A stretch of DNA of 64,000 nt from Nibricoccus sp. (GTDB lineage Bacteria > Verrucomicrobiota > Verrucomicrobiia > Opitutales > Opitutaceae). Under the pieces are notes generated by a model. It did no database searches. It saw only the letters and a list, made by a program, of their open reading frames with translations, and was not told where the DNA came from. The translations under genes were made by a program, and so were the position numbers. Shown one piece after another: positions 8,230-54,532 of this stretch (its first letter is position 1; the number at the start of each line of letters is the position of its first letter). The DNA is taken from the NCBI GenBank assembly GCA_047600805.1, contig JASGKG010000001.1, positions 1,151,133 to 1,215,132 of the forward strand. Reading direction: 5' to 3'.

Positions 8230-8863
8230 ACCCTACGAAGCGGAATAATCGCGAAACTAAAGTCGGTCGAAATCGGACCGATTAATGAAGTGTCAGGAGA
8301 GGCGGCGACATGCTGTATCAGACCTGACGCACTTCGCACTTCCGTGAAAAATTTCCATTTCGTTTTCGACGCGCCCCCTGCGCAACCCTCAGCCACCTCA
8401 TCGTTGGAAGATATTCTCGCGTGGTCGGTCTGGTGTGCGATGGACCAAGCGCTGAAGGATATCGTTTTCGACGAGTGCGAGGACGGCCTCAAAGTCGGAT
8501 GCCTCGACTATCGCGTACGTGGAAAGTATCACGGCCCTCGGTACGTGCCGCTCGCGCGCTTCCCGCATCTGCGCGGCTCTCCGCTTCGCAAGTTCCCAAC
8601 GAAGGCCTCTGGCATCGTCGACATGGGCGACATTACCTGGAGCATCCGGGTGTGGATTTGTGAAAAATTAACCGCGGATGTTTCGCGGCTCTGTGCCATC
8701 GTCCAACTGCTTCCTCCGTCTGGAGCTTGAGGCGGCTGCGATTCGGCAGGCTTTTCCGGCAAAACGGGTTAGTCTTAAAACCTGCAGTTACGTGCACATG
8801 CACGTACATTCTAGGACACGCAGTTGATCGCGTGCTAAAAGCTTTAGCAGCTAAGCTGCTGTG

Positions 8864-9058
8864 TTACTCGCGCTTCTGCACGCAATAGAGTGCAGCGAGC
8901 ATCGCAAGGCCCAAGGCCAGCCAGTCGTCCAACGATCCGCTTCCAATCGCGCCCGGACGGGTCGAAGCGGAAGCGCCATTGGCGAAGATGGCAAAGAAGA
9001 CGGCGGCGAAAGCGAACCTGCGGAGTAAGCGGAGAACTGTGACTAGCTGGAGGGGCAT
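8864..9058 (-). CDS. small hypothetical membrane protein (64 aa): signal-peptide-like N-terminus plus C-terminal TM helix with basic tail
   Basis: N-terminal MPLQLVTVLRLLRRFAFAAVFFAIFANGASAS and C-terminal WLALGLAMLAALYCVQKRE. No recognisable family, and it sits in a region of low coding density. Confidence 0.25.
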   Translation of the reverse strand: MPLQLVTVLRLLRRFAFAAVFFAIFANGASASTRPGAIGSGSLDDWLALGLAMLAALYCVQKRE

Positions 9059-9248
9059 GGCGACATTTGGATTGGCGAGAAGGTAACGGGTGTCGCTTGT
9101 AGTTAAGGTCGATTTGTAAATACGTCACGGCTTGGAAAATTTCCAAGGCTAATATCACGAAAAGCCGCCAAAACTCGGTAAAACTGATAGCTGACCAAGC
9201 GTTGGTGCTTAGCGTCGGTTGGGATTTTATCCCGCGGAGGGCTGAGGC

Positions 9249-9860
9249 TTAATCTGTAATCAGAGCAATCTGAATTCCGGGGCCGTGGACGCCTTGAATT
9301 AGAATACCCTCAACGTCAGCGGTTTTCGACGGGCCAGTGCACCATATCACGTTGGGATCTTCCCCCAGAGTGGTCACTGCTGCTGCGAGATCCGGAAGAA
9401 TATCACGCTTCGAAACGACAGCGACGTGAGTCCAAGGGGCGAGCGCACCCAAACGCGACGACGTACTTTTGTCCTTAAGTATGATCGAACCCGTTTCGGC
9501 GATCGCTCCGACCGCGCGCGTAATGCCGAACTGGAAATCGTCGACACGTTTCCGGTCGAACGACGTTTCTACTTGGAAGGGCTCGCCGAAGGCAGTTTTC
9601 AGCGTCGGCCACAGTTCGGGATCGCAGTATCCGCGTGTATTCCCTTGAGCCTTCAACCAATCGGCCAGTGCGGTTGCGTTGTCGAACGACTGCCCATTGA
9701 CGAGCTTGAGCCGCTCTTTGAAAACGTTGGTGGCATCAGCAAAGGAAAGGCTGGGCATGGTGGCGGTCTTCTCGCCGTATTCGGGAAGTGCGGCGCGTTT
9801 TTGGAGCGGTGCAAGAGCAGCGCGGACCCGGCCGATGATTTTTTCGCGAGAGGCGTTCAT
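9249..9860 (-). CDS. lutC: lactate utilization protein C (LutC/YkgG, LUD domain)
   Basis: About 200 aa LUD-domain-like protein, last gene of the lutA-lutB-lutC order. Its start overlaps the lutB stop (9857..9860). Confidence 0.7.
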   Translation of the reverse strand: MNASREKIIGRVRAALAPLQKRAALPEYGEKTATMPSLSFADATNVFKERLKLVNGQSFDNATALADWLKAQGNTRGYCDPELWPTLKTAFGEPFQVETSFDRKRVDDFQFGITRAVGAIAETGSIILKDKSTSSRLGALAPWTHVAVVSKRDILPDLAAAVTTLGEDPNVIWCTGPSKTADVEGILIQGVHGPGIQIALITD

Positions 9861-11248
9861 TTCTTTTTATGATTTTTCATCCACTTTCTAAACTGACCGC
9901 CCCGCCAAGGAGGCAGGCCTCGATCATCGATCCAACTTTTAGCGGCGCGAGGCAGTAAGGCGTGCGGCACAACGTTGATCAGGCCGCCCATCGCAAGTGC
10001 CGATTTCCAAGCAACCGGCATCGTTGCGCCGAGAGCCCAAGCACCAAGCGGAGGTGCGGCAGCTCCGGCCGCTTCGCTGTGCTCCAGCTTGCCGCGATTC
10101 CGTAGCCGCAGGAGCAGGTCGGGAATGGGGATGTTGACGGGGCAGACCTCGTTGCACGCGCCGCAAAGACTGGAGGCTTTGGGTAAGTCTGCTAGTTCTG
10201 GAAAACGTTTGCCCGCGAGTAACGGCGAAAGGACGGCGCCGACCGGTCCCGGATAAACGCTGCGATAGGCGTGGCCGCTGGCCTGGCGGTAAACCGGGCA
10301 GACATTCAGGCAAGCGCCGCAACGAATGCAGCGGAGGATTTCTTTGCACTCGCTGGCGAGCACGTCGGTGCGGCCATTGTCCACAAAGATGACGTGCATC
10401 TCTTCTGGGCCGTCTGGTTGGTTAGCGCTTTTCGGGCCGGAAATGAACTCGGTGTAAACCGTGAGCTGCTGGCCCGTGCCGGAACGTGCGAGGAGATTGA
10501 GGAAGATCGCCAGGTCGCGGTCGCGCGGTACGATTTTTTCGATGCCGATCAGCGCGATATGAATCTTAGTTGCGGCGAGAGAGAACCGCGAATTGCCCTC
10601 GTTGGTGACGAGAACGATGCGGCCGCTTTCGGCTGAAACGAAATTTGCGCCCGTGATGCCCACGTCGGCCTGGAGGTATTTGTGGCGCAAATACTGGCGG
10701 GCTCGGCGGGTGATTGTCTCTGGATCATCGTTGTAGTCGCCGAGGCCGTTTTCCTCAAACAGCTTTGCGATTTCGCGGCGATTCTTGTGAATGATCGGTT
10801 TGACGATGTGCGAGGGATGGTCGTGGCCGATTTGAACGATGAATTCGCCTAGGTCGGTTTCGAGGCATTCAATGCCTTCCTTTTCCAGATACGGAGCCAG
10901 GCCGATTTCTTCGCTCACCATCGTTTTGGCTTTGACGATTTTCGTCGCGTTCCGCGCCCGCATGATTTCGAGCACACGCTGGCACGCCTCGCCGGCATCT
11001 TCGGCCCAGTGAACTTTCGCGCCGTTGGCCTGAAGTTTGGCTTCAACCTGTGGCAGGTACGTGTCGAGATTTTCGATGGTGTGCTGCTTGATGTCGCCTG
11101 CGAGTTTCCGCAGATTGTCGGGAGCAGGGTAGTGCGTGAAAAGCGCTTTCTTGCGGCTGTCGTAGCCAGCTTTCGAGCCGCCATAGACCGCGGAACGTTT
11201 GTCGGCTGCGAGTTTGGCCGCGTACTGATCGATTTGTTGGTATTTCAT
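9857..11248 (-). CDS. lutB: lactate utilization protein B (LutB/YkgF), 4Fe-4S iron-sulfur protein
   Basis: Ferredoxin-type cluster motifs CIRCGACLNVCPVYRQ and CGACNEVCPVNIP plus a C-terminal LUD-like region. Its stop overlaps the lutC start. Confidence 0.9.
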   Translation of the reverse strand: MKYQQIDQYAAKLAADKRSAVYGGSKAGYDSRKKALFTHYPAPDNLRKLAGDIKQHTIENLDTYLPQVEAKLQANGAKVHWAEDAGEACQRVLEIMRARNATKIVKAKTMVSEEIGLAPYLEKEGIECLETDLGEFIVQIGHDHPSHIVKPIIHKNRREIAKLFEENGLGDYNDDPETITRRARQYLRHKYLQADVGITGANFVSAESGRIVLVTNEGNSRFSLAATKIHIALIGIEKIVPRDRDLAIFLNLLARSGTGQQLTVYTEFISGPKSANQPDGPEEMHVIFVDNGRTDVLASECKEILRCIRCGACLNVCPVYRQASGHAYRSVYPGPVGAVLSPLLAGKRFPELADLPKASSLCGACNEVCPVNIPIPDLLLRLRNRGKLEHSEAAGAAAPPLGAWALGATMPVAWKSALAMGGLINVVPHALLPRAAKSWIDDRGLPPWRGGQFRKWMKNHKKK

Positions 11249-12018
11249 TTGGCGGCTCCTTCGTTGTTCTTCAACGCATCGCGAAGCAACTGCGCGACGT
11301 GCATCGACTTGATCGGCTGGCCCTGTTTTTCCGCTAGGCCACCGAGGTGCATCAGGCAGCTCATATCGGCGGAGAGAATCACATCCGGCTGAGCGGCACG
11401 CAGGTGGCTCAGCTTCAACTCACCCATCGATTTCGAAATGTTCGGAAAGGTGACCGAGAAGGTGCCGCCGAAACCGCAGCATTGCTCGAACTCATCGAAA
11501 TCGACAAGCTGCACGCCTTTGATCGAGCGCAGGAGTGTGTAGACCGCCTCGGTGGAGTTGCTCCCGCGAAGGTGGCACGAGCGGTGAAAAGCGATTTTTG
11601 CGTCGAAGCGGCCGCCCCAGGTTTTTATGCCGAGGCCGTTGACGATGTAGTCGCAGAGCTCCCACGTGCGATTGCCGAGCTGTTTCACATCGGCAAGATC
11701 GGGTTCGTTTTCAAACTCGAGCACAGCGCCATGATACATCATCGCCGCACACGAACCAGATGGCACCACCACGGGCGCTTCGCCGGCGAAGGTCTTGACG
11801 GCATGACGGACGACTTTGCGCGAAGAAGCCCAATCGCCACCGTTAAACGCGGGCTGGCCGCAGCAAGTCTGGCCTTCGGGGAAGTCGATTTCGCAGCCGA
11901 GATGTTCGAGAACTTCGACGGTTGCGGCAGCAACGTCGTCGTAAAAAGCGTCACAAAGGCACGTCGCCATGAGTTGGATACGTTTGCCGTTTGGGCGCGA
12001 GGGCGATGTCGTAGACAT
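11245..12018 (-). CDS. lutA: lactate utilization protein A (LutA/YkgE), CCG-domain Fe-S oxidoreductase
   Basis: MATCLCDAFYDDV...GQTCCGQPAFNGG...SCAAMM...CCGFGGTF are the paired cysteine-rich CCG domains of LutA. There is a 4-bp overlap with the lutB start. Confidence 0.85.
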   Translation of the reverse strand: MSTTSPSRPNGKRIQLMATCLCDAFYDDVAAATVEVLEHLGCEIDFPEGQTCCGQPAFNGGDWASSRKVVRHAVKTFAGEAPVVVPSGSCAAMMYHGAVLEFENEPDLADVKQLGNRTWELCDYIVNGLGIKTWGGRFDAKIAFHRSCHLRGSNSTEAVYTLLRSIKGVQLVDFDEFEQCCGFGGTFSVTFPNISKSMGELKLSHLRAAQPDVILSADMSCLMHLGGLAEKQGQPIKSMHVAQLLRDALKNNEGAAK

Positions 12019-12133
12019 GAGACGTGAGAGAGTATTTTTCGCGGTTTACGGTACAATCGCAAACGTTCGCCCGGGGGAGTGATTTTTGTCGATATGTCAG
12101 ATTCGATTAGCCAAGCTTAACGGCGATTTCCCC

Positions 12134-13567
12134 ATGGCTTCCACAACCTATTGCGCTGCTGTCGATCTAGGCGCCACGAGCGGCCGAGTCATTCTCGGTT
12201 CTTGGGCAAAAAATCAGCTTCGGCTGAACGAAGTTCACCGGTTTCCCAATGCGTTTCGCTCGATTAACGGGCACGATTATTGGGAAATCGGCACCCTTTG
12301 GAATGAAGTGCAAACCGGGCTGCGGAAAGCGATCGCCGCACTTCCGAAAGGCGCGAAACTCTCGTCAGTCGGTGCCGACACCTGGGGCGTTGACTACGTT
12401 TTGCTGAACGATGCAGGACGCCTCGTTTTTCCGATGCACGCCTACCGCGATGCTCGTACACAGGCCGGGCTGACGAAACTCGGCAACACACGCGCGGCAC
12501 TTGATCGCGTTTACGCGGCCACAGGCATCCCGAATGTGTTTTATAACAGCAGTCTTCAGCTAGCGGAAGTCGTGGCGAACTGTCCGGCCATCGAGGATAT
12601 GGCGACGCGCTGCCTCTTCCTGCCGGACTACTTAAATTATCTTCTCTCCGGTCGCATGGAGAACGAGCTGACGATCGCCAGCACGACCCAGCTTCTCGAC
12701 GTGCATTCGCGTGACTGGTCGCGTCAGGCGCTCGACTATTTCCGTATTCCGGCGGGTTGGTTCACGAAACCGGTTCTTGCAGGAACGAAGCTTGGAAATG
12801 TCGTGAATTTCCCGGAACTGAAGAGCGTAAAAGTGATCGCCGTGCCGGGCCACGACACCGCCGCTGCGTATGACGCGATGCCGGCCGATCCAGACGGCAG
12901 CGATCTTTTCCTCAGCTCGGGTACATGGTCACTGGTTGGCTTCGAAAGCGACAAGCCTGTCCTTGGCAAGGAAGCGCTCGCGGCTCGCGTTGCTAACGAA
13001 CGGATCGGCGACGGCCGTTATCGTCCGCTGACCAACGTGATCGGCTTCTGGTTGCTGGAAGGCGTGATGAAGGCTTTCCCCAATCGCCCGCAGAAAGAAG
13101 AAGAACGCGCCAAGCTCAACGCCGCCGCCGCTGCGTTGCCCGCGCCGAAACAGCTTCTTGATACAACTGATCCCGTTTTTGCAAATCCACCTTCGATGCG
13201 CGCGGCGATCGACGCGCAGCTTAAGAAAAAGGGCGCGCGTCCTCCCAAGGACCTTGCTGGCTACCTGCGCCTCATCTGTGACTCGCTCGGCCAGGGCCAT
13301 GCCAACGCGAAAGCGAACTTTGAGCGCATGACAGGCCGGAAGTTCAAGCGGATCCTGGTGGTGGGCGGTGGTTCGCGTAATAAGCTCATGTGCCAGGCGA
13401 CAGCCGATGCTGCGGGTATTCCGGTAATTTCCTTCAGCCTCGAAGGCACAGCAGTGGGCAACATAGCCAGCCAGCTCATCTCGCTCGGCGCGGTGAAAGA
13501 CAAAGCGACTTTCCGCAAGCACCTCAGCGCGGGGCTCGAAAAAGCTGTCTACACGCCGCGCGCTTAA
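12134..13567 (+). CDS. rhaB: rhamnulokinase (FGGY carbohydrate kinase)
   Basis: Closely parallels E. coli RhaB: AAVDLGATSGRV, EVHRFPN, DTWGVDYVLL, AYRDARTQ, SGTWSLVGFES, GNIASQLISLG. I chose the start at MASTTY (the ORF track extends to 12086). Confidence 0.85.
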   Translation: MASTTYCAAVDLGATSGRVILGSWAKNQLRLNEVHRFPNAFRSINGHDYWEIGTLWNEVQTGLRKAIAALPKGAKLSSVGADTWGVDYVLLNDAGRLVFPMHAYRDARTQAGLTKLGNTRAALDRVYAATGIPNVFYNSSLQLAEVVANCPAIEDMATRCLFLPDYLNYLLSGRMENELTIASTTQLLDVHSRDWSRQALDYFRIPAGWFTKPVLAGTKLGNVVNFPELKSVKVIAVPGHDTAAAYDAMPADPDGSDLFLSSGTWSLVGFESDKPVLGKEALAARVANERIGDGRYRPLTNVIGFWLLEGVMKAFPNRPQKEEERAKLNAAAAALPAPKQLLDTTDPVFANPPSMRAAIDAQLKKKGARPPKDLAGYLRLICDSLGQGHANAKANFERMTGRKFKRILVVGGGSRNKLMCQATADAAGIPVISFSLEGTAVGNIASQLISLGAVKDKATFRKHLSAGLEKAVYTPRA

Positions 13568-13586
13568 TCTTCTGCAGCTTTGAAAG

Positions 13587-13619
13587 AAGCCCGGCTCGCA
13601 CAGCCGGGCTTTTTGTTGT
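13587..13619 (+). terminator. Rho-independent terminator after rhaB (possibly bidirectional; the convergent pectate lyase gene ends at 13756)
   Basis: GC-rich hairpin AAGCCCGGCT-cgcac-AGCCGGGCTT immediately followed by TTTTGTTGT, 20 nt after the rhaB stop. Confidence 0.6.
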
Positions 13620-13755
13620 CCCGTTTGAACCGCGGGGGTCGCGGAGTACGCAGAGGATGCAGCAGACAAACTGTTGGCATCTACAACGCGACCGTCACCG
13701 TTCCTCAGACTTCTGCGCTCTCCGCGACCTCCGCGGTTAATCCCTTCATTTGAAT

Positions 13756-15600
13756 TTACTTCGCGTGAGGATCGCGGCTGTTGATGAAGTCCTCGATAAA
13801 AGTGTAACCGCCTTTATCAACCGTGTTGGCATCGGCGGGATTCTTTGGATCGAGCTTGTGAGTGATTTCCCACTCGTCGGGCATGCCGTCGCCGTCGGAG
13901 TCCTTGTAAGGCGTACCTTCGTATTTTGGATAACCGCCGACTTCGGATGGATCGGTGATGAAGCCTTTTGTTACGAGTTCCTTCTGTTCGTCCAGAACCT
14001 CTTGCTTATAACCAACCGCAAGAACTCGCGGGGGCGTTCCTTCGGCCATCGTTGCATTGCCAACTTTGCCGGTGCGGACCATTTCGATCACGCGTTGATC
14101 GACGGCGTCACGTTTTGGCAAAGTCGCGCCGACGTTCGCCAAGACGAAAGAGTAGGCCTCAGCGGCAGGTTGGATCGTGAGCGGGGCGTGCGTGAAGGGC
14201 TCGTTTACGCGAATGCTTTTTAGTGCTTCCGCCTCGGACGTCGTCACGAGCTTCAACTGCGCGAGCTTCGCTTCGACGTCGGCTTTGTAGGCAGCGAGTT
14301 TTTCCGGATCGGAGGGAGCTTTTTTCATCAGCTCTTCGCGGACTTCCTCCTTTGTTTCGACGGCAGGCTGCACACCGCCGTCCCAATTGTCTTTGGTGAC
14401 GCGTTCGTTGCCTTCGACGACGTTGCCGTTGACGTAGGCTTTGCCGTAGTGATTAGCGATGGTTTTACTGCGTTCGCTCTCGGGCTTCAGCAATCGGTGA
14501 GACACCGCTTCTTTAGGCGTGCCAGGGCCGGGTTTGTAGTAGTTGTTAATGATATTGTAGAAGCTCCGGTGGTCACCGCCGTCGGTCGTGCGATGGCGCC
14601 AGTTGAAGACCACGTTATTGGCGAAAGTGAAATCTCCGTACATGCCGACGCTTGGGTTGCGGCCCGTGTTGCAGGCCCAAAGGTTGTGGTGGAACGTGCT
14701 GTTCATCCCGCCGATGGTCGAGCCAAAGGCATGGTGGTAAGTGTTGAGCGCCTCGGAAAAGATCGAATTCTGGATCGTCACATTGACGGTCGGCAGCTTG
14801 AGTTCTTTGCCCGATTTCGGGCGATACATGTGGCGGTACATCGACATGTTTTCATCGAGACCCCACGACGCGGAAACGTGATCAATGATGAGATTGCCCA
14901 CCGGATTTCCTCCAAAGGAATCGTTGCGGTCGGTGACTTCCAGTGCGCCGCGGCGGAAGCGCATATAGCGAATGATGATGTCGTGCGTTTCGAGTTCGAC
15001 CGTATTGCCGGCAATGCAGACGCCGTCGCCAGGGGCGGTGTTGCCCGCAATCGTGATGTAGGGAGCGCGCACGCGAATGCGATCTTTTAACCGAATGATA
15101 CCGGCAACGTTAAAAACAATTACGCGCGGACCGGCCGCTTCACAGGCTTCGCGGAAACTACCAAGGCCGGAGTCGTTGAGATTTGTTACAACGAAGACTT
15201 TGCCGCCGCGTCCACCGAACGAATACATACCACCACCTTCGGCGCCAGGAAACGCAGGGATCGTGGCCTGGGGCAACTCTTCGTAAACGCCGCCGCCCTT
15301 GGTGCCGTTGAACTTTTCACGATTTATCCAAGCCTCAATCTCGGCGGCAGATTTCGTGTCGAGGATGTGGTAGGAGGTTTCGCCAGCGTTTGGGACGTAC
15401 AGTTTGCCCTTCGCGGCCCAAGCCTCGATTTCGGGCTGAGCTTTTGCGAAAGCGTCGTCGGAGCGTTTGTCGGCAGCAGCCTTCTGCTCGTCGGCGGGTT
15501 GCTGCACGGCAGGTGGAATTTTGGGATAACCTTGAGCGAAAGCCGCTGAGGTGAGAACGGCCGCTGCCAGGGAGAAGGTTGCAAGGGATTTGAGGATCAT
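13756..15600 (-). CDS. secreted pectate lyase, PL1 family (parallel beta-helix), with C-terminal Ca-binding D-x-D-G-D type motif
   Basis: Signal peptide MILKSLATFSLAAAVLTSAAFAQ. PL1-type motifs LIIDHVSASWGLDE (vWIDH region) and ...NTGRNPSVG. C-terminal DSDGDGMPDEWE. I trimmed the start to the Met preceding the signal peptide. Confidence 0.8.
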   Translation of the reverse strand: MILKSLATFSLAAAVLTSAAFAQGYPKIPPAVQQPADEQKAAADKRSDDAFAKAQPEIEAWAAKGKLYVPNAGETSYHILDTKSAAEIEAWINREKFNGTKGGGVYEELPQATIPAFPGAEGGGMYSFGGRGGKVFVVTNLNDSGLGSFREACEAAGPRVIVFNVAGIIRLKDRIRVRAPYITIAGNTAPGDGVCIAGNTVELETHDIIIRYMRFRRGALEVTDRNDSFGGNPVGNLIIDHVSASWGLDENMSMYRHMYRPKSGKELKLPTVNVTIQNSIFSEALNTYHHAFGSTIGGMNSTFHHNLWACNTGRNPSVGMYGDFTFANNVVFNWRHRTTDGGDHRSFYNIINNYYKPGPGTPKEAVSHRLLKPESERSKTIANHYGKAYVNGNVVEGNERVTKDNWDGGVQPAVETKEEVREELMKKAPSDPEKLAAYKADVEAKLAQLKLVTTSEAEALKSIRVNEPFTHAPLTIQPAAEAYSFVLANVGATLPKRDAVDQRVIEMVRTGKVGNATMAEGTPPRVLAVGYKQEVLDEQKELVTKGFITDPSEVGGYPKYEGTPYKDSDGDGMPDEWEITHKLDPKNPADANTVDKGGYTFIEDFINSRDPHAK

Positions 15601-15764
15601 GGCGCGTTTGTGATGTAGGTAATTTAGCGTGATCGCTCGAAAACGCACGTTTCCGCATCTGCGAAATTTATTTCATGAAAAAGCCCGAGGATTAAAGCCC
15701 CGGGCTGCAGAAGGGAGAGTTGGTGTCCGATCGTCAGCGGTTAGGCAGCGTCGGAGACGTATGT

Positions 15765-16697
15765 TCAGGCTTTGGGTTTCACCTTGGCCCAAATTTCCTG
15801 AAGGGCGCGGGCGCTGGCTTGGAGACCAGACAGTTCTTTAGGCCAGAGCGATAGTTCGACTTGGTCGATCACGCCGGCGCGGCCAACCACGGTCGGCACG
15901 CTGATCGAAACGTCGCGGAGGCCGTACTTGCCTTGTTGCAGCGACGAAACGGGCAAGAGCTGGCGCTTGTCGTGAGCGATGCAATGAACGACTTCCGCGA
16001 TGGTGAGGCCAACAGCCCAACCGGCGCCGCCTTTGCGGCGAATGACTTCGGCGCCGCTGTTCTTGGTGCGGTCGAATAGTTGGGTTTGGAAAGAGGGCGT
16101 TACGCCCGGCAGTTTCTCAAGCGGCAGACCCGCTGCGGTCGCGCTCGACCAAATCGGAACCATTGTGTCGCCGTGCTCACCGAGGATGAGGGCTTTGACT
16201 TGCGTCGGAGCGAGCTTGAGTTCGGCGGCGATCAGCGAGCGGAAGCGCGCGGTGTCGAGCATCGTGCCGAGGCCGATCACTTGTTTCCATGGCAGACCGA
16301 GGCGAACGGCGGCGAGCTGTGTGAGGATGTCGACCGGATTCGAGACGACGAAGACGATCGCATCTTTCCGGAAGCCGGCTTGTTTGATGGAGGTGAGAAT
16401 ACCGTCGAAAAGGGCGACGTTGCGATTGATCAGATCGAGCCGGGATTCGTCGGGTTTCCGGCGAAGGCCGGCGGTAATGACGAAGATGTCGCTGTCGGCT
16501 GCTTTGGCGTAATCGCCCGAGTAGATGCGTTGATCGGCGATGACGGAAGTGCCGTGCAGGAGATCGAGCGCTTCGCCCGCTGCGAGATCAGCGTTGGCGT
16601 CGAGGATTTGAATTTCGGAAACGATGCCGGCGCATTGGAGCGCGAACGCAGCATTTGATCCGACGCGGCCACCGCCGCCGATGATGGAAACTTTCAT
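15765..16697 (-). CDS. L-2-hydroxyacid dehydrogenase of the LDH/MDH family (Arg at the substrate-specificity position suggests malate-dehydrogenase-type)
   Basis: MKVSIIGGGGRVGSNAAFAL Rossmann motif. Loop ITAGLRRKPDESRLDL (LDH has Q, MDH has R before K). Active-site region ILGEHGDTMVP. Confidence 0.8.
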   Translation of the reverse strand: MKVSIIGGGGRVGSNAAFALQCAGIVSEIQILDANADLAAGEALDLLHGTSVIADQRIYSGDYAKAADSDIFVITAGLRRKPDESRLDLINRNVALFDGILTSIKQAGFRKDAIVFVVSNPVDILTQLAAVRLGLPWKQVIGLGTMLDTARFRSLIAAELKLAPTQVKALILGEHGDTMVPIWSSATAAGLPLEKLPGVTPSFQTQLFDRTKNSGAEVIRRKGGAGWAVGLTIAEVVHCIAHDKRQLLPVSSLQQGKYGLRDVSISVPTVVGRAGVIDQVELSLWPKELSGLQASARALQEIWAKVKPKA

Positions 16698-16734
16698 AAT
16701 TAGCTCCTAAATCTAAAGAGTGCCGAGGTTTTGT

Positions 16735-16808
16735 TAGTCACGCAAAGTCACAAAGACGCAAAGGAAGAAGTATCGAACTTTGCGACTTGGCGTCTTTGTG
16801 TGAGACTC
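16735..16808. promoter_or_regulatory. long imperfect inverted repeat in the aldolase / LDH-MDH intergenic region
   Basis: GTCACGCAAAGTCACAAAGACGC ... GCGTCTTTGTGTGAGACT with an inner ACTTTGCGACT arm. It lies between the aldolase stop (16810) and the dehydrogenase start (16697). Confidence 0.3.
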
Positions 16809-16809
16809 G

Positions 16810-17895
16810 TCAGCGTTTTAACTGCTTGAGGATTTCTTCGGTGAGCTTCTGGACGAGCCCTTCAATTTCTGGCGTGGGCTTCGGATCGGCGGAAGCAGCA
16901 GAAGCGCCGTGAGCGGGGACTTCGCAAACCGCGCCCGGACGGAATTCCGCGCTGTCGCAGAGTTCACATTCTTTGAGGTTGGCGCGAGGATCGGGCATGC
17001 CGAGCTTTTGGCGGAGATTGATGAGCTCTTTGGCCTGACCGCCCGTGAAACGATGAAGTCCGCTACCCAAACCAGCTGCTATCCACACCGTACGGCAATA
17101 GGAATCGATGTTCTCCATCTTCCAGTAGGCGTCTTCGACGTCCTTGCCCCAAACGATCACACCGTGGTTTTGCATGAGAACGGCCTGGTGGTCTTTGCCG
17201 ACTTCGCCGACTTCATCGGAATTGGCGGGCGTGCCTGGCGTCTGGTATTTCGCGACGCCGATCTTGCCGAGGAAGACTTCGGCTTCAGGAATCAGGCAGG
17301 AAGGAATGGAAACATTGGCGATGGCAAACGCGGTGGCGTGCGGTGGGTGAGCGTGCACGCAGGCCTTGGCGGCGGGCTGGCGTTTCATGATCCCGAAGTG
17401 CGTCTTGGCCTCGGAGGTGCGAACGCGTGTACCTGCGAGTTGGTTACCGTCGAGGTCGGTCAGGCACATGTCCTCGGGCTTCATGAAGCCTTTGCAGATG
17501 AGAGTGGGCGTGGTGAGGGCGAGGTTGTCGCCGACGCGGATGGTGATGTTGCCGCCGTTGCCGTCGGTGTACTCGCGAGTCCAGAGGCGCGAACCCATGT
17601 CGCAGATGCGCTGCTTGAGGACGTTGATCGCGGGAGAGTTGAAAAACTTTTCGATTTCCGCGGGCGTCTTCGGATCGCTGCCGGGCGTCCATCTAAATTC
17701 GTAGTCGGGAATCGACGGAGCGGCAGGTTTGCCGGTCGCGCGCGCGGGGCCGACGCTGTTTTTGGCGGCTTGGGCGGCGCGCTTTTGATCGTCGATAAAA
17801 TCGCGGGCCGACGGCGTAAGGATGGCGCCTTCGGGAATGGATTGACCGGAGCGGATCAGCGCTTCGACTTCGCGGGCAGTGAGGATCTGAGGCAT
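16810..17895 (-). CDS. class II aldolase (rhamnulose-1-P / fuculose-1-P aldolase type) with N-terminal extension consistent with a BMC encapsulation peptide
   Basis: Aldolase_II core (GGNITIRV..., HAHPPHATAFA, NHGVIVWG). It is preceded by about 80 extra residues, MPQILTAREVEALIRSG..., and a Pro/Ala-rich linker. The Met 24 nt downstream of the BMC-P stop is the plausible start. Confidence 0.85.
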   Translation of the reverse strand: MPQILTAREVEALIRSGQSIPEGAILTPSARDFIDDQKRAAQAAKNSVGPARATGKPAAPSIPDYEFRWTPGSDPKTPAEIEKFFNSPAINVLKQRICDMGSRLWTREYTDGNGGNITIRVGDNLALTTPTLICKGFMKPEDMCLTDLDGNQLAGTRVRTSEAKTHFGIMKRQPAAKACVHAHPPHATAFAIANVSIPSCLIPEAEVFLGKIGVAKYQTPGTPANSDEVGEVGKDHQAVLMQNHGVIVWGKDVEDAYWKMENIDSYCRTVWIAAGLGSGLHRFTGGQAKELINLRQKLGMPDPRANLKECELCDSAEFRPGAVCEVPAHGASAASADPKPTPEIEGLVQKLTEEILKQLKR

Positions 17896-17918
17896 GGGAA
17901 ACGTGTGAATTAAAAGTG

Positions 17919-18239
17919 TTAGTTGGGGAGCGGCTCGTAGTTGATGCGTTCGACGATGCAAGCGACGTAGGCGTCAACCGGAGCGGGGCCGGTAAAAGGT
18001 TGGGTGGCTTCGGCGCCTTCGGTGATACCAACGATGCTGCCTTGGCCCGCGCCGAGTTGATCGTAAACGACGAGGCTCGAACCTTTCGCCAGAGGCACGG
18101 GAGGGGCGCCGGCGAACTGCGCTTTGGAAAACGGCTGCACGATCAGCAGGCGACCGCCTTCGTAAACGGGTTCCTTTTGCGTAAGGGTGATGCGGCCGAT
18201 GACAGTTCCGAGGCGCATGTCAGTCCTTTCGCTTTTCAA
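17919..18239 (-). CDS. BMC vertex protein (BMC-P, EutN/CcmL/PduN family) 3 of 3
   Basis: MRLGTVIGRITLTQKEPVYEGGRLLIVQP...VVYDQLGAGQGSIVGITEGAEA is the EutN/CcmL fold signature. Confidence 0.85.
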   Translation of the reverse strand: MKSERTDMRLGTVIGRITLTQKEPVYEGGRLLIVQPFSKAQFAGAPPVPLAKGSSLVVYDQLGAGQGSIVGITEGAEATQPFTGPAPVDAYVACIVERINYEPLPN

Positions 18240-18495
18240 TCGGATCGACGATGCCGACGATCAGATTGCGCAGAGGCGTTTTCGGATCTTTGACGAGCTC
18301 GCGCGTGGCGGACCCGTCGGTGGAAAGGATCACATGCTCATGCAGTCCTGCGCCGAGACAATCGATTGCGAGGATTGGCGTGCCTTCTTCATTCCCGTCC
18401 GCATCGATCGGCTGACAAATCACCGTGCGGTAGCCTTCCATGCTGGGATGGTGGGCTGCCGTGACGATGTTGCCGTCGATGCGAGCAAGATTCAT
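18220..18495 (-). CDS. BMC vertex protein (BMC-P, EutN/CcmL/PduN family) 2 of 3
   Basis: MNLARIDGNIVTAAHHPSMEGYRTVICQPID...AIDCLGAGLHEHVILSTDGSA. The ORF-track N-terminus (to 18657) overlaps the aldehyde dehydrogenase, so I placed the start at the internal Met. Confidence 0.8.
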   Translation of the reverse strand: MNLARIDGNIVTAAHHPSMEGYRTVICQPIDADGNEEGTPILAIDCLGAGLHEHVILSTDGSATRELVKDPKTPLRNLIVGIVDPIEKRKD

Positions 18496-18538
18496 GCAGA
18501 AGGAGTCAGGATTCGGGATACAGGAGCCAGGAGCTGAG

Positions 18539-19990
18539 TTAGTAGATACGCAAGTTATCGACCAGCACGCAGCGACGCGTGCGGGTAAACGTGCGCGGGT
18601 TGGTGATGCCTTCGCCGGTGGTCGTCGCGATCGAGTAGCTGAGGTAGCCTTCGCCACCCAAACCGAGACCGGCGACGCACGAACCGTTTTTGATGAAGAT
18701 CGTCGTGTCGAGCGCGCGGGCCATCGCGGTCATGCGGTCAACGTTCATCGAATGGATGATCGAAGAGTGCTTGTAACCGTGTTCGGCTTTCTTCGCGGCC
18801 TGAATGCCTTCTTCGATCGTCTTTACGCGGACGATCGGCAGCATCGGCATCATCTGTTCTTCGATAACGAACGCGTGGTTAGCGTCGGTTTCAGCGAAGA
18901 GCAGCTGAGTTTTGTCGGGAATCGAGACACCCGCGTGTTTGGCGAGGACTGAAGCGTCGACACCGACCATCGCGCGATTGAGCACCGGATGTGAGCAACC
19001 GCCGGCATCGGCCTTGGTCGAGAAAGCGACTTTCGTTAGAGCATCGAGCTGGTTGTCGTTGAGGCCATAAGCGCCGTTGCGGGCGAGAGCGGCCAGGAAT
19101 TTGTCGGCAATGGAATCGAGGACGAACACTTCCTTTTCACCAATGCAGAGGAGATTGTTGTCGTAGGCGGCACCGTGAACGATGTTGGCCGCGGCGCGAT
19201 CAAGATCGACGGTGTCGTCGACGAGAACGGGAGGATTGCCCGGGCCGGCGCAGATGGCGCGCTTGCCGGATTTCATCGCGGCAGCTACAACGGCTGGACC
19301 GCCGGTGACGCAAATCACTGGGACCTCAGGCGCTTTGCAGAGCGCGTCGAAAGATTCGAGCGTCGGCTTTTCAATCGTGCAAACGAGATTCTCGATGCCG
19401 ATCTCGGCTTTGATGGCCTCATTGAAAGTGCGAACCGCGAGCGCGGCGGACTTGGCGCCGCCTGGGTGCGGATTGAAGACGACGGCGTTTCCGGCAGCGA
19501 CGATGTTAATGATGTTGCCGGAGAGCGTCGGGATCGAGTGCGTCATCGGCAGAATCGCCGCGATGACGCCGTAGGGTGTGTATTCCTCGAGGGTGATACC
19601 GTGATCGCCGCTGCGGGCGTCGGGGCGCAACCATTCAACACCGGGAACGAGCTTCACGATCTGGAGCTTCTCGATCTTGTGGTCGAGGCGGCCGATCTTG
19701 GTTTCGGCGAATTCGAATTTGCCCCATTCCTCAGCTTTGGCAGTGCAGATCGCCTTGACGATCTCGACGACCTTGGCGCGGGCGGCGACGCCCTTGATGC
19801 GGAGTTGTTCGTAGGCGGCGTAAGCGGCTTTGCAGGCGGAGGCAGCGTCTTGGAAAACGCCGAGGCCGCCGGAAGAAGAAACAATAGCCGGTGCTCCGGA
19901 AACACCGGTGGACGTGCGACCAAAGGCACGGACCACTTCCTCGACCACGGAGCGGACGAGGTTTTCATCAATGACGATCTGGGAAGACAT
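18539..19990 (-). CDS. CoA-acylating aldehyde dehydrogenase (PduP/EutE type) with N-terminal encapsulation-peptide-like helix
   Basis: Aldehyde DH fold with catalytic Cys region NNLLCIGEKEVFV and NAD binding VTGGPAVVAAAMKSGK. Extra N-terminus IDENLVRSVVEEVVRAF plus a G/S linker. Confidence 0.9.
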   Translation of the reverse strand: MSSQIVIDENLVRSVVEEVVRAFGRTSTGVSGAPAIVSSSGGLGVFQDAASACKAAYAAYEQLRIKGVAARAKVVEIVKAICTAKAEEWGKFEFAETKIGRLDHKIEKLQIVKLVPGVEWLRPDARSGDHGITLEEYTPYGVIAAILPMTHSIPTLSGNIINIVAAGNAVVFNPHPGGAKSAALAVRTFNEAIKAEIGIENLVCTIEKPTLESFDALCKAPEVPVICVTGGPAVVAAAMKSGKRAICAGPGNPPVLVDDTVDLDRAAANIVHGAAYDNNLLCIGEKEVFVLDSIADKFLAALARNGAYGLNDNQLDALTKVAFSTKADAGGCSHPVLNRAMVGVDASVLAKHAGVSIPDKTQLLFAETDANHAFVIEEQMMPMLPIVRVKTIEEGIQAAKKAEHGYKHSSIIHSMNVDRMTAMARALDTTIFIKNGSCVAGLGLGGEGYLSYSIATTTGEGITNPRTFTRTRRCVLVDNLRIY

Positions 19991-20010
19991 GAAAAGGAGC
20001 TAAAGATTGG

Positions 20011-20310
20011 TTAGACGATGCGCTTGCCAAGGACCTCGACGGTATCGACGAGGCCGACGATCGAGGCGTCGACCGGCATTTGTTTCATGCCCGTGGTTTG
20101 GCGCGCGGAACTGCCCTGGCAGAAGAGAACAAGGTCACCCGTGCCTGCGCCGAGAGCATCGGCGGCCACGATAGTATTGGCGCCGGGTTTGAGCTGAGTC
20201 GGATTTGCCTCATCGACCAACATGGGCCGAAGGAGGAGGAGTGGGCGGCCGCGCAGGGTCTCGTCTTTTTTAGTGGAGACCACGGAGCCAATGACGCGGG
20301 CGAGAAACAT
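20011..20310 (-). CDS. BMC vertex protein (BMC-P, EutN/CcmL/PduN family) 1 of 3
   Basis: MFLARVIGSVVSTKKDETLRGRPLLLLRP...VAADALGAGTGDLVLFCQGSSAR. I placed the start at the internal Met (the ORF track extends to 20502). Confidence 0.8.
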   Translation of the reverse strand: MFLARVIGSVVSTKKDETLRGRPLLLLRPMLVDEANPTQLKPGANTIVAADALGAGTGDLVLFCQGSSARQTTGMKQMPVDASIVGLVDTVEVLGKRIV

Positions 20311-20383
20311 GGCAGTTCCCGGGTTGGAGGGTTTTCGCTTCGAAACGGCGCGCCTTCGACGACGCGCCGTGAAAAGCGCGGGC

Positions 20384-20686
20384 TTATTTCTTCGGAGCGG
20401 CAGGAGCAACGGGCTTTGGCAGCACCGTGACGACGTCATCGTGCGGGCGCGGAATAACCTGCACGCTGATGACCTCGCCGTAAGCGCGAGCGGCGGTGGC
20501 ACCGGCTTCGGTGGCGGCCTTGACAGCGGCGACGTCGCCTGTGACGACGGCGGTCACGAGGGCGTTGCCGACCTGTTTCATCGGGCCAACGAGAGTGACG
20601 TTGGCGGACTTGAGCATGGCATCGACGCCAGCAACCAGGGCGGTGAGGCCGCGGGTTTCAAGAAGACCGAGAGCGGATTGAGACAT
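20384..20686 (-). CDS. BMC shell hexamer protein (BMC-H, PduA/EutM/CcmK family)
   Basis: [30 protein letters not shown]...[19 protein letters not shown]...VIPRPH is the canonical BMC-domain signature. Confidence 0.9.
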
Positions 20687-20724
20687 GGTGGATTGGATTT
20701 GAGGTTTAGTTAGAGAAAGGAAAT

Positions 20725-21912
20725 TCAGGCTTTGGGCTGGGCGGCGACGAGGCGGGCGGTTTCGCGGGCGACGACGAGTTCTTCATTCGCCGGGATGACG
20801 AGCACGCGGGTGCGGGAGCCGTTGGCGGAGAGATCGGTTTCGTGCGGCGCTGTTTTGTTGCGGTTCGTGTCGAGCACGAGACCGAGATCGGAAAGATTGG
20901 CGCAGATCGCTTCGCGCAACCACGGGTTGTTTTCGCCGATGCCGGCTGTGAAAACGAGAGCGTCGCAGCCGCCGAGTTCGACCCAGAAAGCGCCGATCCA
21001 GTGACGGATGCTCTGGACGAAAACCTCGAGCGCGAGTTTGGCGCGGGCGTCGCCTTTGTCGGCGGCGGCCTTGATGTCGCGAACGTCGTTACTCACGCCG
21101 GAGATGCCGAGCAGGCCTGACTCTTTGACGAGCTGGCGTTCGGCGTCTTCGAGGGAAATTTTCAGGCGGCGCATCGCGCAGGGCAGGGCGGCGGAATCGA
21201 GGTCGCCGACACGGTTGTTTTGCGGGAGGCCGGATTGCGGGCTCAGGCCCATGCTGGTGCCGATGGCGACGCCGTTGCGGATGCCGGTGACGGAACTCGA
21301 ACCGCCGAGATGGCAGGAAATCACGCGCAGCGGAGCGCCGGCGACTTCGCGCGGACCATCGAGGTATAAGCGGCGAACGATTTCGCCGATGTCATCGTGA
21401 CCAAGCAATTCCGCGGAACGCTCGGCGACGAACTTGTGGCTGGCGCCGTGGAAACCGTAGCGACGGATGCCGGCCTTGTACCAAGTCTCTGGTACGGCAT
21501 ACCGGCTCGCATGGTCGGGCACCCACTGGTAGAACGCCGTCTCGAAGAGAGCGACGCGCGGGACAGACGGGAGCTTTTCGCGGAAGACGCGCAGGCCCTC
21601 GGCGTACGGCTTGTTGTGCGCGGGCGCGAGATCGACCGTATCGAGCAACGCTTTTTCAACGCGTTCGTCGGCCAGGAGGCAGCCGGTGATTTCGCCCCCG
21701 AGGACGGTTTTGAAACCGACGGCGTCGAGATCATTCGCGTTCTTGAGATGACCGGCTGAAGAGAGTTCTCCGAGCGCCAAATCGATCGCAGCGCGATAAT
21801 CGGTCACGCGTTCGCTTCCGCCCTTCGCCAACAGGCGCGCCTGCGAGCCGTCGACGTCGAAGAGACGGTACTTGAACGAGGTGGAGCCGAGGTTGGCGAC
21901 GAGGATTTTCAT
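20725..21912 (-). CDS. ackA: acetate (acyl) kinase
   Basis: [19 protein letters not shown]..., [14 protein letters not shown]-like motifs. Canonical AckA length of 395 aa. Confidence 0.95.
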
Positions 21913-21980
21913 CAGCGAGCGCGAAGGAAATACGGGCCGGCCGGGCAGCGATGCGCGGCCGGTTTAGTCTTTGGAACGAG

Positions 21981-22259
21981 TTAGGCGACCCACTTGCCGA
22001 GACCAGCGAGGTCTTCGTGCGGACGCGGAATGACCTGGGTGGCGACGACTTCGCCGACGCGCTTGGCGGCTTCAGCGCCGGCGTCGATGGCGGCCTTGAG
22101 GGCGGCGACATCACCGCGGAAGAATGCCGCGACGTTGCCGGAGCCGATCGTCTCGTAGCCGGACATCGTGACATTGGCCGCTTTGAGGGCGGCGTCGGAG
22201 GCCTCGAGCAAGGTGCACAGGCCTTTGGTTTCAATCATACCGAGAGCTTCTTGAGCCAT
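21981..22259 (-). CDS. BMC shell hexamer protein (BMC-H)
   Basis: [31 protein letters not shown]...[38 protein letters not shown]. Confidence 0.9.
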
Positions 22260-22301
22260 GGTGGAAAGAGTTTAGATATTAGAGGTTAGGGGCGGTTTGG
22301 C

Positions 22302-22571
22302 TCACATTCCGAAGTGCTTGAGCAGCTCGGGATGCGGGCGCGCAATGACGTGGGCGCAGACGAGTTCGCCGACGCGTTTGGCGGCTTCAGCGCCGGCGTC
22401 GATGGCGGCTTTGACGCTGCCGATGTCGCCCTTGACGATGACGGTAACGAGACCGCCGCCGATCTGGATTTGGCGGGCGAGGTTAACGCCTGCCGCTTTG
22501 ACCATGGCATCGCTGGCTTCAACGGAGCCGACGTAGCCTTTGGTTTCGATCATGCCGAGAGATTCACTCAT
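22302..22571 (-). CDS. BMC shell hexamer protein (BMC-H)
   Basis: [29 protein letters not shown]...[38 protein letters not shown]. Confidence 0.9.
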
Positions 22572-22621
22572 GTGGAATCGGATTGAGGTTGGTTGGAGGT
22601 TTACGGGTTAAAATTGGTTCG

Positions 22622-23305
22622 TTACTCAGCGGGCAAAAGCTCGCAGGGAGTGTCGGGCCCGAGGCCGCAGGCGTTGCCTTCGTCGGTGTCGATATGGACC
22701 TCGAGTTTGAAATCTTTCGAGACACGGACGAGCATGCGATCGAACGTCATGGCGCAAGGGCCACCGACTTTGAGGCGCATGAAATCGCCCTGCTTCACGC
22801 CATAGAAAGCGGCGTCGTCTGGGTGCATGTGCACGTGCGGGGCGGCGCGGATGACGCCCTCGGGCATTTCAAAAAATCCCGCGGGGCCCATCAGCATGCA
22901 ACTGGGCGTGTCTTTGATGGTTCCGGACTGGCGGACGGGTACTTCGAAGCCGAGCGAAATGGCGTCGGTCAAAGCGAGCTCGACCTGGTTGAAATCGCGG
23001 CACGGACCGAGAATGCGGAGATTGGAAATCACGCGACTACGCGGCCCGATCAGTGTGACGGATTCCTTCGCGGCGTATTGGCCGTCCTGATACAGCCACT
23101 TCATCGGCGTGAGCTGGTAGCCTTTGCCGAAGAGCGCTTCGACGGCTTGCGGCGAGAGGTGGCAATGACGCGCGCTGACGTTGACGACGAGCGGGCGCGG
23201 AGCGCGCACGGAGCGCGGCATCGGGCGTTGAAGACGTTGATAGAGTAGCCGGCGAACGACGTGCTCGATTTCGGCACGATGAGGCAGGGTTGGCGCGGGC
23301 GTCAT
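22622..23305 (-). CDS. pduL: PduL-type phosphotransacylase with N-terminal encapsulation-peptide-like helix
   Basis: Two PduL repeat motifs (VVNVSARHCHLS; ...APHVHMHPDDA...). Extra N-terminus IEHVVRRLLYQRL plus a P/R-rich linker. Confidence 0.85.
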   Translation of the reverse strand: MTPAPTLPHRAEIEHVVRRLLYQRLQRPMPRSVRAPRPLVVNVSARHCHLSPQAVEALFGKGYQLTPMKWLYQDGQYAAKESVTLIGPRSRVISNLRILGPCRDFNQVELALTDAISLGFEVPVRQSGTIKDTPSCMLMGPAGFFEMPEGVIRAAPHVHMHPDDAAFYGVKQGDFMRLKVGGPCAMTFDRMLVRVSKDFKLEVHIDTDEGNACGLGPDTPCELLPAE

Positions 23306-23412
23306 GGGGTCAGTGTGTCAGAAAGGGTTGAAAACAGCTTACCACAATTTGTCGAAAGCTGTGCGTTTTATGACGCAAGTCAATCATATAACTTTCGGAG
23401 GTAGAATTCACT

Positions 23413-23452
23413 TTTCGAAAACAAAAAACGCGCACGAGTTATCATGCGCGTT
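23413..23452 (-). terminator. Rho-independent terminator downstream of the thioredoxin-like gene, insulating it from the BMC operon promoter region
   Basis: Minus-strand hairpin AACGCGCATGATAACTCGTGCGCGTT (8-bp GC-rich stem) followed by TTTTTTGTTTTCG. It is 30-70 nt after the stop of the 23481..23891 gene. Confidence 0.6.
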
Positions 23453-23480
23453 CGAAAATTCTGAGGGCTGAGCGGCGCGG

Positions 23481-23891
23481 TCAATATTTCGACGAAGGCC
23501 TTACAAACATCAGAAGCTTGTTTTTGTCAGCGAACGGGCCGACCCAAGGGAAGCCGACCACTTTACCTTTTTCGACAACGATGAGAGTGGGCGTGGCTTG
23601 CACGTTATATTGATCGTGAACGGCGCGGTTATCGGCGAGGGCGGTGTTGATCTTCACGACCCGTATTTTGGGATAATCTTTTGCCAATTGTTCTAACAAC
23701 GGTGTGGTCGCCTCGCAGGGCGGGCTGTCTGGTTGCCAGAAATAGAGGAGGACTTTTTGATCCGTGCTTTCCAGTATTCTGGAGAGGCGCTCCTCTGTGA
23801 CCACGTCGGGGCCAAATGTCTTAAATTTTTGCGCGCGACTTAGGAATACCGCGACCACCGCGATCAAAGTGACGACCAGGTATCTGTTCAT
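23481..23891 (-). CDS. membrane-anchored thioredoxin-like protein (atypical single-Cys SPPCE motif)
   Basis: N-terminal signal anchor MNRYLVVTLIAVVAVFL. Thioredoxin-fold layout VLLYFWQPDSPPCEA...PTLIVVEKGKVVG, with a single Cys in place of CxxC. Confidence 0.5.
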   Translation of the reverse strand: MNRYLVVTLIAVVAVFLSRAQKFKTFGPDVVTEERLSRILESTDQKVLLYFWQPDSPPCEATTPLLEQLAKDYPKIRVVKINTALADNRAVHDQYNVQATPTLIVVEKGKVVGFPWVGPFADKNKLLMFVRPSSKY

Positions 23892-37604: not shown

Positions 37605-37615
37605 ACACTTGGAAC

Positions 37616-38362: not shown

Positions 38363-38368
38363 GCGACG

Positions 38369-39994: not shown

Positions 39995-40075
39995 GCTACG
40001 CACGTTTTCACAAAAATATCTGCTAAGAGCACAAGAATTTTCCCCGCCCATTTCGGTAGGATGTAGCTCATACCC

Positions 40076-40711: not shown

Positions 40712-40719
40712 GGAATTCC

Positions 40720-54531: not shown

Positions 54532-54532
54532 G

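Follow-up and report, generated by a model that had tools for sequence, protein, structure and literature searches.

The locus described here raises the question of whether a bacterial microcompartment (BMC) operon, a sugar kinase gene and a lactate-oxidation gene trio that lie side by side form one route from a deoxyhexose to pyruvate. The genes occupy positions 9249-23305 of a 64,000-nucleotide stretch of Nibricoccus sp. DNA (that whole stretch is called the window below). The source is a freshwater Opitutaceae bacterium, and the aldolase of the operon was 100% identical to P0002 of a Nibricoccus sp. metagenome-assembled genome. A preliminary description had presented these genes as one supercluster leading from rhamnulose to pyruvate. 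Most of its gene identities were borne out by Pfam and NCBIfam searches, and its coordinates coincide with the limits of open reading frames (ORFs), since 9249 is the stop of lutC and 23305 the start of PduL. Our answer, to which we give a probability of roughly 0.7, is that a metabolosome of the Planctomycetes-Verrucomicrobia (PVM) type would convert lactaldehyde from deoxyhexoses into lactate with formation of ATP, with RhaB feeding the route and LutABC carrying lactate on to pyruvate.

The core of the locus is an unbroken run of minus-strand genes from 23305 to 16810, which encode PduL, two hexameric-type shell proteins (BMC-H), acetate kinase, a third BMC-H, a pentameric-type shell protein (BMC-P), a CoA-acylating aldehyde dehydrogenase (AldDH), two more BMC-P and a class II aldolase. 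The PduL-type phosphotransacylase (22622-23305) matched Pfam PTAC (PF06130) with an E-value of 3.1e-71 and PRK15070 with 242 bits (cut-off 209). It is followed by BMC-H 1 (22302-22571; Pfam BMC 4.3e-25), BMC-H 2 (21981-22259; 1.1e-26) and the AckA homologue (20725-21912), an acetate/propionate-family kinase of the PvmG type (Pfam Acetate_kinase 1.5e-92; TIGR00016 306.5 bits, cut-off 293.4). The Pfam match of AckA starts at profile position 57, and an N-terminal truncation was considered and ruled out, the N-terminus being normal. BMC-H 3 (20384-20686; 100 aa; Pfam BMC 4.3e-23, 81.5 bits) clustered with the BMC-H proteins of relatives; it had been overlooked in the preliminary description, which counted two BMC-H, and it is masked by the overlapping maximal ORF (20011-20502) of the neighbouring BMC-P. 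The three BMC-P genes, all with inferred starts, are BMC-P 3 (20011-20310; Pfam EutN_CcmL 2.6e-28), BMC-P 2 (18220-18495; 5.5e-22) and BMC-P 1 (17919-18218; 8e-20), pentamers of the EutN/CcmL family. The AldDH gene (18539-19990; PF00171) reached 595 bits with NF011927/PRK15398 (cut-off 403), and the aldolase gene (16810-17895; Pfam Aldolase_II, PF00596, 1.4e-44) encodes the signature enzyme of PVM loci. The shell set is thus three single-domain BMC-H (PF00936) and three BMC-P (PF03319), a combination that recurs in relatives and has been published (PMC8857213), and no tandem-BMC protein (BMC-T) was found in the locus.

Three of the enzymes carry terminal helices that resemble encapsulation peptides (EPs). 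PduL (AEIEHVVRRLLYQRL) and AldDH (ENLVRSVVEEVVRAF) have the EP-like helix at the N-terminus, and the aldolase has an amphipathic one at the C-terminus (PEIEGLVQKLTEEILKQLKR) following a Pro/Ala/Ser linker, while AckA and the product of the next gene, an LDH/MDH-family dehydrogenase, are without terminal extensions. C-terminal EPs are known from PVM aldolases, and the EP sites reported for PVM enzymes match those seen here (PMC4594438). The dehydrogenase gene (15765-16697, minus strand; Pfam Ldh_1_N and Ldh_1_C) is the counterpart of the gene with lactate dehydrogenase (LDH)/malate dehydrogenase (MDH) Pfam domains in PVM loci, and we call it LDH-like below. The published PVM locus type comprises the class II aldolase as signature, AldDH, PduL, AckA, the LDH/MDH-pfam gene and a BMC-P triplet (PMC4207490, PMC8857213, PMC8217296). 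By its gene content, the operon is a canonical PVM locus because the aldolase with its C-terminal EP, the AldDH and PduL core, AckA with the LDH/MDH-pfam gene, and a shell of H and P proteins lacking BMC-T are all present. A DeoR regulator, which is an ancillary and not a defining feature of PVM loci, was not found in the window by tblastn with the DeoR proteins of relatives.

The remaining genes of the locus are lutCBA and a pectate-lyase-like gene, also on the minus strand, and an FGGY-family kinase gene on the plus strand. The trio consists of lutC (9249-9860; LUD-domain subunit, Pfam LUD_dom 6e-20), lutB (9857-11248; a LUD domain and two 4Fe-4S clusters, Pfam LUD_dom, Fer4_8 and LutB_C; TIGR00273 LutB/LldF 461.2 bits, cut-off 444.8) and lutA (11245-12018; two cysteine-rich CCG domains, Pfam CCG in two stretches, 3.9e-31), and neighbouring lut genes overlap by 4 bp each. 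Orthologues of lutC adjoin lutB in 15 related loci. By gene trio and domains this is a complex of the LutABC/LldEFG/YkgEFG type, and we infer its specificity for the oxidation of L-lactate to pyruvate from family membership and from the rhaB/rhaA context in relatives. The kinase gene (12134-13567; FGGY_N and FGGY_C; likely start MASTTY at 12134, maximal ORF from 12086) diverges from lutA and encodes a probable rhamnulokinase, here called rhaB. Its best models were the rhamnulokinase models TIGR02627 (381 bits, cut-off 528) and NF007925 (374, cut-off 639), and the fuculokinase model gave 96. Orthologues of this kinase with 58-80% identity adjoin RhaA (PF06134, 6.6e-174) in 14 related loci.

Read as a pathway, RhaB would phosphorylate L-rhamnulose, and a kinase whose gene lies elsewhere would act on L-fuculose. 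The class II aldolase, targeted to the shell, would then split the ketose-1-phosphate into dihydroxyacetone phosphate (DHAP) and L-lactaldehyde, and inside the shell of three BMC-H and three BMC-P the AldDH would turn lactaldehyde into lactyl-CoA. PduL would convert lactyl-CoA into lactyl-phosphate, which regenerates CoA, the AckA homologue would form L-lactate and ATP from lactyl-phosphate, and LutABC would oxidise L-lactate to pyruvate in an NAD-independent step. The route from rhamnulose to pyruvate had been proposed in this form before, and it matches the published model of the PVM metabolosome (PMC4207490, PMC8857213, PMC13608581). For the substrates and the flux at every step we draw by analogy on that model and on the genetics of Planctopirus limnophila; likewise, the co-regulation of the genes and the site at which the AckA and LDH-like steps would take place are our proposals.

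The evidence that ties rhaB and lutABC to the BMC operon comes from gene order in relatives. A scan with one genome per species gave 525 relatives, and the best 80 of the 525 were compared; all belong to Opitutaceae/Opitutales, with 71-90% aldolase identity. The window proteins were searched against the 80 loci by tblastn, and the genes of the relatives were called, clustered and annotated. Gene calling used a codon log-likelihood caller trained on the window genes, because longest-ORF calling fails with spurious antisense ORFs in this GC-rich DNA. Linkage was counted in the 51 loci with at least 8 kb of sequence past the aldolase. This analysis showed that the order PduL-H-H-AckA-H-P-AldDH-P-P-aldolase-LDH is the same in most of the 80 relatives, and that an LDH-like gene directly follows the aldolase in 37 of the 51 loci. 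Within 10 kb of the aldolase, rhaB was present in 27/51 loci and lutABC in 16/51, and lutABC was never found without rhaB among these 51. In a 5-Mb genome, a given gene would lie no more than 10 kb from another in approximately 0.2-0.4% of cases, so the association of rhaB and lutABC with the BMC operon is real, since the counts are far above this level, although the 80 loci all belong to a single family and therefore do not give phylogenetically independent counts.

The arrangement of these genes varies and the partnership remains. The commonest form is collinear, with the aldolase and LDH followed by RhaEW (in some loci), rhaB, rhaA, lutA, lutB and lutC, so that rhaA sits between rhaB and lutA; RhaA was present in 14 loci overall. 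In another arrangement, which is that of the window, rhaB is turned round and reads away from lutA. There were 28 rhaB-bearing loci, of which 18 had lutA(BC) at a distance of up to 4.5 kb, four had a gene of the Mqo family, two had neither, and four were truncated where the retrieved sequence stopped. Thus, among the 24 informative loci rhaB was accompanied by lutABC in 18 and by the Mqo-family gene in 4. The latter encodes a quinone oxidoreductase (PF06039) and lies beside rhaB or rhaA in the slot of lutABC, namely in L042 (19689-20948), L052 (18919-20415), L054 (16257-17954) and L074 (9070-10569). From its position and family, this enzyme is a candidate L-lactate:quinone oxidoreductase (Lqo) and looks like a non-orthologous replacement of LutABC. 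The idea of an Lqo function for Mqo-family enzymes comes from the Mqo paralogue of S. aureus. The linkage outlasts several rearrangements and the swap of lutABC for the Mqo-type enzyme, which argues for selection. This conserved synteny supports the view that rhaB and lutABC are functionally tied to the BMC operon. Furthermore, because rhaB of Opitutaceae almost always travels with lutABC or a Mqo-family enzyme, and often beside the BMC operon, pyruvate rather than lactate is supported as the end product.

Several results weigh against this reading. RhaB scored under the rhamnulokinase equivalog cut-off, and in the 64-kb window we found neither rhaA or another isomerase nor a mutarotase, RhaEW, fuculokinase, transporter or DeoR for this pathway; that the isomerase and the regulator were missing had already been stated and held across all 64 kb. 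The region is predicted to be four transcription units, namely PduL to LDH, the lyase-like gene, rhaB and lutABC, because there is a terminator-like hairpin after each of three genes, those for thioredoxin, the LDH-like protein and RhaB. The region upstream of the BMC operon (23306-23453, minus strand) is preceded by the hairpin of the thioredoxin gene at 23426-23453. The hairpin at 15682-15706 (minus strand; 9 bp stem with 7 GC pairs, followed by a T-run) ends the BMC operon past the LDH-like gene, and that at 13593-13618 (plus strand), also with a T-run, lies after rhaB. No common motif above shuffles was detected among the regions upstream of the BMC operon, rhaB/lutA, the lyase-like gene, the LDH-like gene and the GH28 gene. 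A borderline 11/12 match, TTTTCGCG[G/C]TTT, was shared by the rhaB-lutA spacer (12036-12047) and the GH28 upstream region (approximately 24200-24215), but it was reached by 1 of 30 shuffles and was not significant over ten comparisons. The k-mers CAAAATC and ATCTTCC, which are enriched upstream of PduL in relatives, have no occurrence in the window. So of the single supercluster described earlier the conserved linkage stands, while the genes fall into four predicted units with no common operator motif detected. In Nibricoccus sp. 5N149 (L002), the closest relative available, the genes after the BMC operon are those of polysaccharide synthesis (asparagine synthase, glycosyltransferases and an ABC-2 exporter), and LDH, rhaB and lutABC are all missing there, which means that the linkage of rhaB and lutABC with the BMC operon is dispensable. 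A BMC-independent rhamnose route, which the preliminary description had not considered, is also at hand in many relatives: next to their PVM locus, 25 of the 80 encode a RhaEW-type bifunctional protein of class II aldolase and short-chain dehydrogenase/reductase (730-765 aa; e.g. L032 12109-14334), often directly before rhaB. Its source records name it a bifunctional rhamnulose-1-phosphate aldolase/short-chain dehydrogenase, and it would lead from rhamnulose-1-phosphate to lactate in the cytosol. Finally, everything reported here rests on sequence.

The RhaEW-type proteins lead to a different explanation, which we regard as unlikely: that rhaB and lutABC serve a cytosolic route in which RhaA, RhaB and RhaEW yield L-lactate and LutABC oxidises it to pyruvate, as in Bacillus subtilis, with the BMC used mainly for fucose or other aldehyde-generating substrates and the adjacency reflecting a common deoxyhexose neighbourhood. 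The function of RhaEW has been demonstrated (PMC3870299), rhaB-lutABC is a separate operon in a Chthoniobacteraceae genome (PMC11596606), and the BMC operon stands alone in L002. The same explanation gains from a tandem double class II aldolase of approximately 427 aa, which is about 30% identical to the BMC aldolase, has no EP-like tail or other BMC features, and accompanies rhaB, RhaEW or DeoR in 10 relatives (L016 13280-14557, L037 12910-14289, L027, L028, L032, L033, L036, L055, L067 and L080). It is absent from the window. But with no RhaEW or second aldolase in the 64 kb, the sole aldolase near rhaB is that of the BMC operon. In addition, BMCs were observed in rhamnose-grown Limisphaera cells (PMC13608581), and P. 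limnophila is reported to need BMC function for both fucose and rhamnose. Among the best 120 protein matches for RhaA and RhaEW (at least 79% and at least 88% identity, respectively) there was none from the source genome, which is not evidence of absence.

The four predicted transcription units and the lack of a common operator motif speak for another explanation, in which the adjacency has no pathway meaning: lutABC would serve exogenous L-lactate, the LDH-like gene would be a housekeeping MDH, and the gene order would be inherited Opitutaceae synteny. An Opitutaceae isolate uses lactate itself for growth (PMC12388122), the LDH-like protein has an MDH-type Arg102 (see below), and the restriction of the 80 loci to a single family with non-independent counts also suits this view. 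In many relatives, as in the window, the PVM locus moreover has housekeeping genes of clearly unrelated function (panC, panE, dapL, panD) as neighbours, and this conserved pantothenate/dapL neighbourhood calls for caution in inferring function from every adjacency. We nevertheless consider an adjacency of no meaning very improbable. A lactate-oxidase candidate stands by rhaB in 22 of the 24 informative loci despite the rearrangements, four of them being the Mqo-family enzyme in the lutABC slot, and the collinear loci have rhaA enclosed by rhaB on one side and lutA on the other. The same tie recurs in unrelated phyla, where lldEFG belongs to rhamnose regulons (PMC3870299). The metabolosome route ending in pyruvate remains our preferred reading.

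What the LDH-like gene contributes to this route is less clear-cut than its name suggests. The preliminary description had called it an LDH/MDH gene, and the family was indeed present, but the sequence is not that of a canonical L-LDH. The protein scores under the cut-off for both the LDH and the MDH equivalogs, and its closest solved structures are L-LDHs. In an alignment to 1a5z and 1ldb, the substrate loop TAGLRRKPDESRLDL has Arg opposite Q102 of LDH, and the loop GLRRKPDESRLDL does not match the canonical L-LDH pattern GxxQKPGETRLDL. Arg102 marks malate dehydrogenases, as in the Q102R switch of B. stearothermophilus LDH. Among orthologues that adjoin PVM aldolases, 50 of the 52 keep the loop TAGLRRKPDESRLDL unchanged. 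Among the nearest 150 representatives of 50%-identity clusters the loop could be read in 82, with R in 44, Q in 36 and S in 2, and R-type loops (e.g. TAGIPRKPGESRLDL, the pattern of LDH-like malate dehydrogenases) lay at a similar distance as Q-type loops. The classical specificity rule predicts a preference for oxaloacetate/malate, and this adds to the need for a separate lactate oxidase such as LutABC. The published roles of the locus LDH are lactaldehyde reductase (PMC4207490) and L-lactate dehydrogenase (PMC11596606), and the Arg102 signature, as read from the alignment, sits uneasily with both. It is conceivable, though we think it improbable, that the LDH-like gene, which is conserved at the 3' end of PVM operons of Opitutaceae, encodes neither an LDH nor the proposed lactaldehyde reductase but an MDH-type enzyme with Arg102 which recycles the NADH of AldDH by an oxaloacetate/malate shuttle, with lactate delivered to the quinone pool via LutABC or the Mqo/Lqo-type enzyme. 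If true, such a shuttle would be a new way for an aerobic metabolosome to recycle its cofactor. In any case, the MDH signature of the locus 'LDH' bears on how PVM compartments recycle NAD+.

Comparison with known systems showed how much of this was already in print. The metabolosome of Planctopirus (Planctomyces) limnophila and, more generally, loci of the PVM type (PMC4207490; PMC8217296, 285 loci) have the same enzymes, the C-terminal EP on the aldolase, and BMC-H with a BMC-P triplet and no BMC-T. They come from the same range of phyla, and the route proposed for them also leads from lactaldehyde to lactate. The window differs from this type in that DeoR is missing beside the operon, the LDH-like gene has Arg102, and the kinase gene and lutABC are attached. 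The Opitutales BMC 'super locus' (Sizikov et al. 2020 via PMC8636102, Ca. Synoicihabitans) is a PVM BMC locus with rhamnose catabolism genes adjacent, as here; that account concerns host-associated marine Opitutales, whereas the window is without rhaA and has the pectate-lyase-like insertion. In the BMC-bearing Chthoniobacteraceae genome SH-KS-3 (PMC11596606), rhaB lies within the lutABC operon, whereas in the window rhaB diverges from lutABC and the pair adjoins the BMC operon. A Lut complex has likewise been proposed for the step from L-lactate to pyruvate in a metabolosome, in a Methylacidiphilales genome with BMC (PMC8706344). So the novelty implied for the physical fusion of LutABC to a BMC locus does not hold, since its parts are published (PMC8636102, PMC11596606, PMC8706344).

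Similar logic is found in bacteria without this compartment. The earlier remark that LutABC occurs beside rhamnose genes is correct, as lldEFG is known from regulon genomics (PMC3870299): the rhamnose regulons of Actinomycetales and Rhodobacterales have recruited lldD or lldEFG with pyruvate as end product, as proposed here, but they use cytosolic RhaEW, RhaR-type regulators and no microcompartment. The aerobic rhamnose/fucose pathway of E. coli (RhaA/B/D or FucI/K/A, AldA, LldD; PMC3870299) follows the same path from ketose-1-phosphate to DHAP and L-lactaldehyde, L-lactate and pyruvate. In E. coli, the cytosolic non-acylating AldA oxidises lactaldehyde directly and the flavoenzyme LldD oxidises lactate, whereas the window would use a CoA/phosphate route in a shell, with ATP, and LutABC in place of LldD. 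The elements of the interpretation are already published, and the window is a correctly read, slightly rearranged further example; new here are the family-wide synteny counts, the replacement of Lut by the Mqo-family enzyme and the Arg102 signature of the locus 'LDH'. The PVM 'super locus' lets Verrucomicrobia use the rhamnose and fucose contained in polysaccharides of plants and algae, and to this picture our survey adds a useful but incremental point and does not overturn current understanding.

The last claim to be considered is that the locus is a pectin or rhamnogalacturonan module, for which a pectate lyase and a GH28 gene had been cited. The lyase-like gene (13756-15600, minus strand; likely start MILKSL at 15600, maximal ORF to 15648) encodes a secreted pectate-lyase-like beta-helix protein of 614-630 aa with a Sec-type signal peptide (...LTSAAFA/Q) and a C-terminal TSP3-like repeat. 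Contrary to the earlier description, the gene is not at the edge of the cluster but lies inside it, between the LDH-like gene and rhaB, and it is preceded by a strong terminator-like hairpin. Its residues 132-424 match PDB 9buj, 'pectate lyase', with E=7.6e-42, and the match to NF041900 PelZ was partial (134.6 bits, cut-off 840). None of the Pfam pectate-lyase models of polysaccharide lyase family 1 (PL1) matched the protein, even at E<=1. PelZ is a PL1 protein, and membership of the lyase-like protein in PL1 is plausible. The GH28 gene was located beyond the cluster as had been described (24156-25805, plus strand; polygalacturonase-family hydrolase, Pfam Glyco_hydro_28 6.3e-19). None of the 80 related loci has the lyase-like gene, and only 2 of them have a GH28 homologue close to the BMC operon, so both are lineage-specific neighbours outside the conserved unit, and the pectin module as proposed is not upheld. 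They fit a pectin or rhamnogalacturonan niche and are not part of the conserved module. A cluster of CE8 pectinesterases was called in eight loci, of which a stricter tblastn with one representative confirmed two. The pectin flavour is a weak, recurrent trait of the neighbourhood.

On the side where relatives carry their regulator, DeoR adjoins PduL in 34-41 of the 80 and is missing in the window and in L002. Both have on this side a gene for a membrane-anchored or secreted thioredoxin (23481-23891 in the window), which ends in the strong terminator hairpin mentioned above. The flanks of the locus are otherwise housekeeping, with smc and zwf-opcA-pgl upstream and thioredoxin, GH28, aminotransferase, panD and lpxK downstream. 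PVM loci of Opitutaceae habitually lie among panC, panE and dapL (e.g. L009, L015, L017 and L022), and panD of the window is at 27180-27545. The approximately 1 kb between pgl and lutC (8230-9248) gave no convincing gene; two weakly scoring ORFs there had no family, there was no Rfam match, and blastx/tblastx against relatives returned self-hits only. Neither RNA genes nor riboswitches were found with Rfam (7.5-28 kb) or ARAGORN (whole window).

Two further gene groups lie farther downstream. On the plus strand at 36870-41757 there are an AraC-family regulator, a DUF1638 protein, a RACo-type corrinoid activase, a B12-binding protein and a URO-D-like methyltransferase, which probably make up a corrinoid-dependent methyl-transfer (demethylation) cassette, unexpected-looking for an aerobic polysaccharide degrader. 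Adjoining it at 33810-36734 is a gene for a hybrid sensor kinase with a periplasmic solute-binding domain. The minus strand at 44500-61804 carries a glycan-utilisation cluster with GH31, an MFS sugar transporter, a GFO/IDH/MocA oxidoreductase, a SASA-type esterase, two GH2 (one with a malectin domain), a BT_1020-like beta-propeller with a sialidase-like carbohydrate-binding module and an SSF symporter. The BT_1020-like domain hints at substrates of the rhamnogalacturonan-II type.

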